From a virus (lineage: Duplodnaviria; Heunggongvirae; Uroviricota; Caudoviricetes): a stretch of DNA of 8,444 nucleotides. This document shows positions 4,579-5,547 of this stretch, one piece after another; within the stretch, counting starts at the first letter, position 1; every line of letters starts with the position of its first letter. The stretch lies in the IMG/VR virus record IMGVR_UViG_2700989521_000015. One strand, written 5' to 3'. The notes beneath the pieces were generated by a model that saw only the letters and a program-made list of their open reading frames with translations, ran no database searches and was not told where the DNA came from. Made by a program: the position numbers and the translations under genes.

Positions 4579-5547
4579 CTAACGTCTTGCTTTTAACAAT
4601 AACCAGATAAACACCGGCGCACCCAACGTTGCGGTGACCACGCCAATAGGCAGCTCTGGGCAGCTAATGCCAGGCGCGCTACAATATCGGCCAGCAGCAA
4701 TGCGCTCGCCCCTGCCAGCGCGCAGCCGGGAAGTAATACGCGATGATCGGTTAAACCACACAACCGAAGAATATGTGGGATCACCAGACCAATAAAGCCG
4801 ATAGCACCCGCCAGCGCCACACTGACGCCAACCATCCAGCCGGTCGCGGCCACCAGCACATTGCGCCAGAACCACAGGGGTAAACCCAGTTGCCGCGCCG
4901 AGATCTCGCCAAGTGCTAACATATTCATCGGCCTGGACTGACAACAGATCCACAACAACACGGGGATCAATGCCAACATCAGCCAGCTTTGCCGCCAGTC
5001 TACGCCGCCAAAACCGCCCATCATCCAGTACATCAGCTGACGTAAATCAACAGAGGTGGAAAAGTAGATAGCCCACGTCATTAGTGCGCTACAGATAATC
5101 CCTAATGCAACGCCAGCCAGCAATAACCGACTGGTCGAAAGATGACGACGGGCGAAACGTAAGAGTATTAAAGTGATGATAAGCGCGCCAGCAATCGCAC
5201 ACAGCCCTAGCGCCCAGTTGGGGAGTTGCCCTTGCCCAAGCAATACCGCGGCGATAAGCCCCACGCCTGCGCCGTTAGAGACGCCAAGTAGTCCAGGTTC
5301 TGCCAGAGGATTTTCAAACAACGCCTGCATTACAAGCCAGCGCCGCACCAACCAGCAATACAGCCAGCGTACGTGGCAGGCGAATTTGCCAGACGAACAG
5401 TTCGCCACGAGGAGTAAACCAGTCACCTAGCGAGATCCATTGTTCACCGGCGCAAAGGCTTAAGAGAAGCGCCAGCAGCATCAAAACTGACAGGCATAAT
5501 AACCAGCGAATATTTTGTCGCTGTTGTTGGCGGGCAAGTGTCAGCAT
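4579..5547 (-). pseudogene. btuC: btuC (B12 ABC importer permease) disrupted by two frameshifts: a net ~11-bp loss near 5328-5336 and a 1-bp deletion near 4657-4660
   Basis: Three overlapping minus-strand ORFs (5314..5547, 4593..5426, 4579..4953) each carry a consecutive piece of Btu[10 protein letters not shown]...VGAALA, then MQALFENPL...IVARLALAA, then [25 protein letters not shown]. Residues ISGAV are missing at the first junction; the reading frame slips by one at the second. Lesion sizes are inferred from the protein alignment, not from a nucleotide alignment. Confidence 0.85.

Follow-up and report, generated by a model that had tools for sequence, protein, structure and literature searches.

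The vitamin B12 permease gene btuC of a Shigella dysenteriae lineage is very probably a pseudogene that decayed in two steps

The locus described here raises a simple question: is a btuC gene that can be read only by changing frames a genuine pseudogene, an artefact of sequencing, or a gene whose working product is still made by some less usual route? BtuC is the ten-helix membrane permease of the BtuC2D2-BtuF vitamin B12 type II ABC importer. Within the window (the whole stretch of DNA that was analysed, 8,444 nt) its gene occupies 4579-5547 on the minus strand, as the first gene of btuC-btuE-btuD. A first-pass annotation, made from the sequence alone, had given these coordinates and two separate lesions within btuC, and alignment to intact E. 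coli btuC shows that it was exact on both counts. As argued below, we consider it very likely that btuC in this S. dysenteriae lineage is a dead gene, and that it decayed in two steps.

The reference for alignment was btuC of E. coli T28R (981 nt, 326 codons; 4654-5634 in locus L001), which encodes a BtuC orthologue of the same length as chain A of PDB 1L7V (326 aa) that aligns with it end to end (E = 5e-204). Against this reference the window gene measures 969 nt, from an ATG at 5547-5545 to a TAA at 4581-4579 (minus strand), and falls into three colinear blocks in which reference nt 1-213 correspond to 5547-5335, nt 225-900 to 5334-4659, and nt 902-981 to 4658-4579. The first segment (5335-5547, minus strand) holds BtuC codons 1-71 in the ATG frame, with TM1 and part of TM2; the second (4659-5334, minus strand) holds codons 76-300, from the end of TM2 to TM9, in the +1 frame only; and the third (4579-4658, minus strand) holds codons 302-326 and the stop, encoding TM10, in the ATG frame again. 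An uninterrupted 326-codon frame, which such an alignment might have revealed, is absent, and an 11-bp and a 1-bp deletion are found instead. Since these sum to a net loss of 12 nt, the ATG frame is regained for the last 25 codons, and the starts of the first and last open reading frame pieces (5547 and 4953) are both 0 modulo 3. The segments thus run in frames 0, +1 and 0, and the earlier statement that BtuC is spread over three reading frames has to be amended to two frames in three segments. Apart from the deletions, only two substitutions separate the gene from intact E. coli btuC, P40L and the synonymous L195L. As all of this is read directly off a deterministic alignment with orthologous genes, chance does not come into it.

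The larger deletion, with its junction at 5334-5335 (minus strand), removed ATATCCGGCGC, that is, reference nt 214-224 in codons 72-75. It can be placed in one way only, and neither a repeat nor a homopolymer flanks it. A slipped-strand origin was considered and rejected, since direct repeats are missing from its flanks; slippage at a nearby GGCGCTG repeat would have removed 17 bp. The smaller deletion, with its junction at 4658-4659 (minus strand), removed G901, the first base of codon 301, from the context gcc-G-cag. An origin in a homopolymer was likewise rejected for G901, as this context contains none; only a further 1-bp deletion, in the btuC-btuE spacer (A6 to A5, 4539-4540, minus strand), sits in a run of A. 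The strain distribution of the spacer deletion is identical to that of the G901 deletion.

As a result of these lesions the coding sequence is scattered over overlapping partial minus-strand open reading frames at 5547-5314 (77 aa), 5426-4593 (277 aa) and 4953-4579 (124 aa), which match the NCBIfam BtuC equivalog NF003001 at profile positions 4-79, 79-304 and 302-329, respectively. The middle piece by itself reaches 403.7 bits, above the curated cut-off of 334 bits, and Pfam FecCD (PF01032) is recorded on both of the called btuC fragments. The ATG frame contains four internal stops, of which the first, a TGA at 5314-5316 (minus strand) following codon 77, limits the product to 77 aa, made up of 71 BtuC residues and CNAGVV. 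The longest in-frame BtuC stretch in any open reading frame is 225 codons; no single frame of about 326 codons with all ten TM helices exists, and TM10 is cut off from TM3-TM9. Around this damage the surroundings are those of E. coli, in that the synteny btuC-btuE-btuD-nlpC-ydiV-selO is preserved and the order and spacing of btuC-btuE-btuD agree with both T28R and SE11. Given two frameshifting deletions and a stop after codon 77, the locus is a btuC pseudogene and no functional member of the family.

Single-base indels are a frequent type of error, and one sister complete genome (locus L015) has a private 1-bp nlpC deletion that is possibly such an error; it might accordingly be supposed that one or both btuC indels arose in sequencing or assembly and that the true gene is intact. 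We regard the chance of this as close to negligible. When each assembly among the fetched loci is counted once, both deletions occur at the same positions in seven independent assemblies from different projects and platforms, short-read assemblies, strain CDC 74-1112 and a complete chromosome among them (GCA_002968215.1, GCA_002968235.1, GCA_002950155.1/CP026840.1, GCA_002967595.1, GCA_003572055.1, GCA_000193895.2 and Logan ERR5984619, the last of these adding a separate read set). Neither site lies in a homopolymer, an 11-bp loss is untypical as an error, the 1-bp deletion is found alone on 177 contigs, and the distribution of the lesions tracks the SNP genealogy exactly. The first-pass annotation had favoured genuine pseudogenisation over sequencing error, and this holds up well. 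Recurrence across assemblies is, in our view, a strong substitute for read-level support, and rules out an artefact of assembly.

The same comparisons place the lesions taxonomically. Over 8,296 nt the window matches the S. dysenteriae contig PUGV01000927.1 (GCA_002967595.1) at 100% identity, and exact matches of its BtuD, BtuE, truncated SelO and 77-aa BtuC fragment are found in public records named S. dysenteriae, the 77-aa product having been deposited as EFW48334.1 (S. dysenteriae CDC 74-1112). Among complete E. coli genomes a btuC match is present in all 5,426, and those listed at the top annotate an intact BtuC; the aligned copies from T28R, O26 11368 and SE11 are uninterrupted. An 80-nt search across the 11-bp junction found it in none of these 5,426 genomes, all of which fell in the 80-90% identity band and therefore carry the 11 bp, and the G901 junction has no exact match among them either (best 80/81). 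Exact-pattern scans of 185,579 species-representative genomes gave no match to either junction, a result that mainly excludes other taxa, as Shigella probably has no separate representatives there. By contig counts, intact BtuC of the Shigella haplotype is found on 530, the 321-aa product of the G901 deletion on 177 (named S. boydii and S. dysenteriae), and the fragments of the doubly damaged gene on 21 (77 aa) and 22 (245 aa).

Were the two deletions separate events, and if so, which came first? The G901 deletion is common to all 12 lesion-bearing assemblies; it stands alone in five (CP026828.1, CP026823.1, CP026815.1, GCA_900618175.1 and Logan SRR13037726), and none of the 12 has the 11-bp deletion without it. 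One further assembly, Logan ERR126952, is a close relative with an identical BtuD and an intact btuC. We compiled a table of variable sites over 3.4 kb, from nlpC to upstream of btuC, and found these sites to be strictly nested with zero homoplasy. P40L in BtuC and R134H and S247L in BtuD are common to all Shigella loci compared, the intact one included; the G901 and spacer A deletions share one branch; and from that branch descend two subclades, in one of which BtuD L164R became fixed while the 11-bp deletion arose in the other, with private SNPs within each. Read in this way, the sequences indicate that the two frameshifts are independent, successive events and that the G901 deletion is the older, because the SNP pattern is nested and there are five assemblies with G901 alone lost and none with only the 11 bp lost. 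The independence of the lesions had already been proposed from the window itself, and stands on this homoplasy-free background. The 11-bp deletion, as the second event, would therefore have struck an already damaged gene.

The effect of the older deletion can be considered on its own, as in the five assemblies that have it alone. In the 321-aa product that results, 21 unrelated, non-hydrophobic residues stand where residues 301-326 were, and the frameshifted tail has a mean Kyte-Doolittle hydropathy of -0.15, as compared with 1.77 for the original residues 301-322, which implies the loss of TM10. This helix, A310 included, forms part of the wall of the translocation pathway and keeps the BtuC-BtuC interface together (PMC3260306). 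We infer that the G901 deletion would by itself disable the permease. The 321-aa allele is still named BtuC in some annotations.

The history that we propose would thus begin with the loss of G901 in an ancestor common to strains named S. boydii and S. dysenteriae, the shift of frame at codon 301 swapping out the last helix, TM10. In the subclade that includes the source strain, the 11-bp deletion in TM2 (codons 72-75) would have followed, after which ribosomes starting from the ATG would be expected to stop after 77 codons; the combined loss of 12 nt would put the last 25 codons into the ATG frame once more, with four stops intervening. In the absence of a functional BtuC, BtuD would be left with no membrane partner, such that the ABC importer should no longer bring B12 and cobinamide across the inner membrane. 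A polar effect of the early btuC stop on btuE and btuD is possible as well. What the sequences show of this history is the lesions themselves, with their recurrence, order and spread among taxa; the loss of transport, and relaxed selection as the cause, which would fit these data, are what we infer from them.

A product might nonetheless be rescued, either by ribosomal frameshifting at both sites or by co-translation and assembly of fragments of 77 aa and 245 aa, and some features of the locus invite this thought. The net loss of 12 nt leaves the start and the stop in register, a +1 slip at GTT-GTT-TGA-A, the end of the 77-aa open reading frame, would lead into the BtuC frame, and gene callers predict an overlapping 245-aa open reading frame from Met76. 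We find the persistence of a working permease by such a route highly improbable all the same. Two frameshifts would be required, at sites of recent deletions that are absent from every complete E. coli genome searched and hence show no conservation; on reading the sequence, neither junction presents a recognised slippery motif or heptamer or a stimulatory element, and an Rfam search of the whole window returned no match. For the split arrangement, the ATG of Met76 has no Shine-Dalgarno-like sequence upstream. Moreover, any +1-frame product would keep the G901 shift and lack TM10, and TM2 codons 72-75 are gone in any case.

The genes downstream tell a somewhat different story. The first-pass annotation held that btuD and btuE remain intact, and as far as reading frames go this is so: btuE (3966-4517, minus strand) is a full-length 183-aa open reading frame for a thioredoxin/glutathione peroxidase, matching NF007900 over positions 1-183 of 183 and differing from SE11 in one amino acid, and btuD (3217-3966, minus strand) is a full-length 249-aa open reading frame for an ABC ATPase that matches NF002981 end to end (424.7 bits). 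The qualification concerns BtuD, which differs from its nearest E. coli counterpart by R134H and S247L. The first of these (codon 134 at 3565-3567, minus strand, CGT to CAT) changes the Arg directly after the LSGGE signature (LSGGEWQR). This residue was kept in all 13 of the other full-length BtuD cluster members read, E. marmotae included, and an exact 80-mer around codon 134 occurs in no complete E. coli genome; at the level of sequence, R134H is specific to this Shigella haplotype. Its presence in the intact relative as well shows that it arose before the btuC lesions. BtuD L164R (D-loop SLD, position 3476) occurs in loci L011, L012, L015 and L019, in the sister subclade that has the G901 deletion only, and is found on 158 contigs; its presence there would be consistent with relaxed constraint.

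That the same transporter was altered on successive branches (BtuD R134H, the G901 deletion, and then either the 11-bp deletion or L164R) could also be taken to mean that loss of BtuCD import was selected, as a pathoadaptive change, rather than tolerated, the second hit being favoured for ending the synthesis of a misfolded 321-aa protein. Other truncated forms of BtuC on many E. coli and Shigella contigs, which hint at recurrent loss, would lend themselves to the same argument. We nevertheless think adaptive loss very unlikely. Most related Shigella keep an intact btuC (the 530 contigs above), and the btu genes show no excess of later changes over their flanks: of seven changes after the G901 deletion, four fall in btuC or btuD, which make up about half of the 3.4-kb stretch, an enrichment that is not significant. 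Neighbours that are unrelated to B12, namely selO, ydiV and nlpC, decay equally often in sister strains, and decay by drift is expected in a small, IS-rich population (PMC7373316). It is tempting to speculate on a more elaborate form, a stepwise selected shutdown in the S. dysenteriae/S. boydii clade in which R134H and then the G901 deletion were followed by independent second hits, the 11-bp deletion or L164R, that removed a harmful misfolded permease or a futile ATPase; this too seems to us improbable. If it were true, then loss of B12 import, taken together with truncated btuC on hundreds of E. coli and Shigella contigs, would count as a convergent pathoadaptive trait. Among those truncated forms are a 167-aa BtuC fragment (P0064) that starts at Met160, has a different C-terminal haplotype (KAGR) and is found on 250 contigs, and a 246-aa frameshifted form (P0063), which suggests that btuC may have been damaged independently elsewhere in E. 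coli and Shigella.

Two-step decay of btuC is set in a neighbourhood with damage of its own. At the left end of the window a copy of IS1 (IS1SD/IS1A-like, 1-321) lies in selO at nt 1331 of the gene; the insertion reported in the first-pass annotation is confirmed, with the truncation at 321|322, and selO (300-1652) is left with a 450-aa open reading frame as compared with 478 aa. At the right end the terminal 60 nt of IS600, of the IS3 family (8385-8444), truncate a prophage-like island, so that the whole 8-kb block is IS-bracketed. The island (5756-8384) lies directly upstream of btuC and contains a tyrosine integrase (6558-7685), an HTH protein (7585-7929) and small hypothetical open reading frames; the same island adjoins btuC in E. 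coli SE11, O26:H11 11368 and T28R.

Lesions in selO are independent across the clade: IS1 sits at nt 1331 in the window, CP026840.1 has lost 1 bp at nt 1190 (8315-9750 in locus L005), and the gene is interrupted at nt 677 in CP026828.1 (10359-11035 in L007); in CDC 74-1112 selO is a 443-aa call. A 1-bp deletion in ydiV (nt 632) is found in two complete genomes (5089-5801 in L015 and 5090-5802 in L019), and the nlpC deletion that is private to L015, which could be an assembly error, lies at nt 235 of that gene (4379-4842). Shigella are known for IS expansion and convergent gene loss, IS1 and IS600 are among the five IS common to all Shigella, and non-type-1 S. dysenteriae fall in clades with S. 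boydii (PMC7373316). The context of the window (IS1, IS600 and lesions in sister strains) fits this pattern of IS expansion and gene loss. The suggestion of a decaying lineage, "Shigella-like or E. coli B-like", was therefore right in its first half, given the 100% identical S. dysenteriae contig, the protein names and the presence of IS1 and IS600; the E. coli B-like alternative does not apply.

In practical terms, annotations of this clade should list btuC as a pseudogene, the 321-aa allele included, and metabolic models of these strains should drop BtuCD-dependent import of cobalamin and cobinamide. For subtyping within the S. dysenteriae/S. boydii clade the two deletions offer clean, nested markers, and the locus provides a small worked example of a first hit followed by further hits in the same transporter. 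Beyond annotation the significance is small, and no long-standing question is opened. Searches of the literature on btuC, btuCED and cobalamin pseudogenes in Shigella, and for the accessions, found no published description of this btuC lesion.

It remains to set the locus beside what is already known. The standard is the BtuC2D2-F importer of E. coli (PDB 1L7V, 2QI9, 4FI3 and 4R9U). The window gene resembles E. coli BtuC in being an orthologous locus with the same operon order and 2 nt differences beyond the deletions, and is unlike it in that 12 nt are missing at two sites, part of TM2 is gone, TM10 is disconnected and the product from the ATG is 77 aa. Far closer is the 321-aa allele of S. 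boydii and S. dysenteriae (EIQ60518.1 of S. dysenteriae 225-75; CP026828.1), which shares the G901 and spacer deletions, P40L, and R134H/S247L, and which is the direct precursor state of the window btuC. It differs in lacking the 11-bp deletion, so that TM1-TM9 lie in one open reading frame, and most of its carriers have BtuD L164R, which is absent from the window.

In a broader sense the locus is like other cases of reductive evolution in Shigella (Hawkey et al. 2020, PMC7373316), as a small-indel pseudogene in a transport gene of the E. coli core, flanked by IS1 and IS600, with neighbours that have been hit in sister strains. That study dealt with S. dysenteriae type 1, S. flexneri and S. 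sonnei, and btuC appears there only in a table of metabolic-model reactions; public records list the clade considered here, in contrast to that sample, under the names S. dysenteriae and S. boydii. Measured against these systems, the window btuC is an ordinary lineage-specific pseudogene of a well-understood kind, whose sequence was already deposited.
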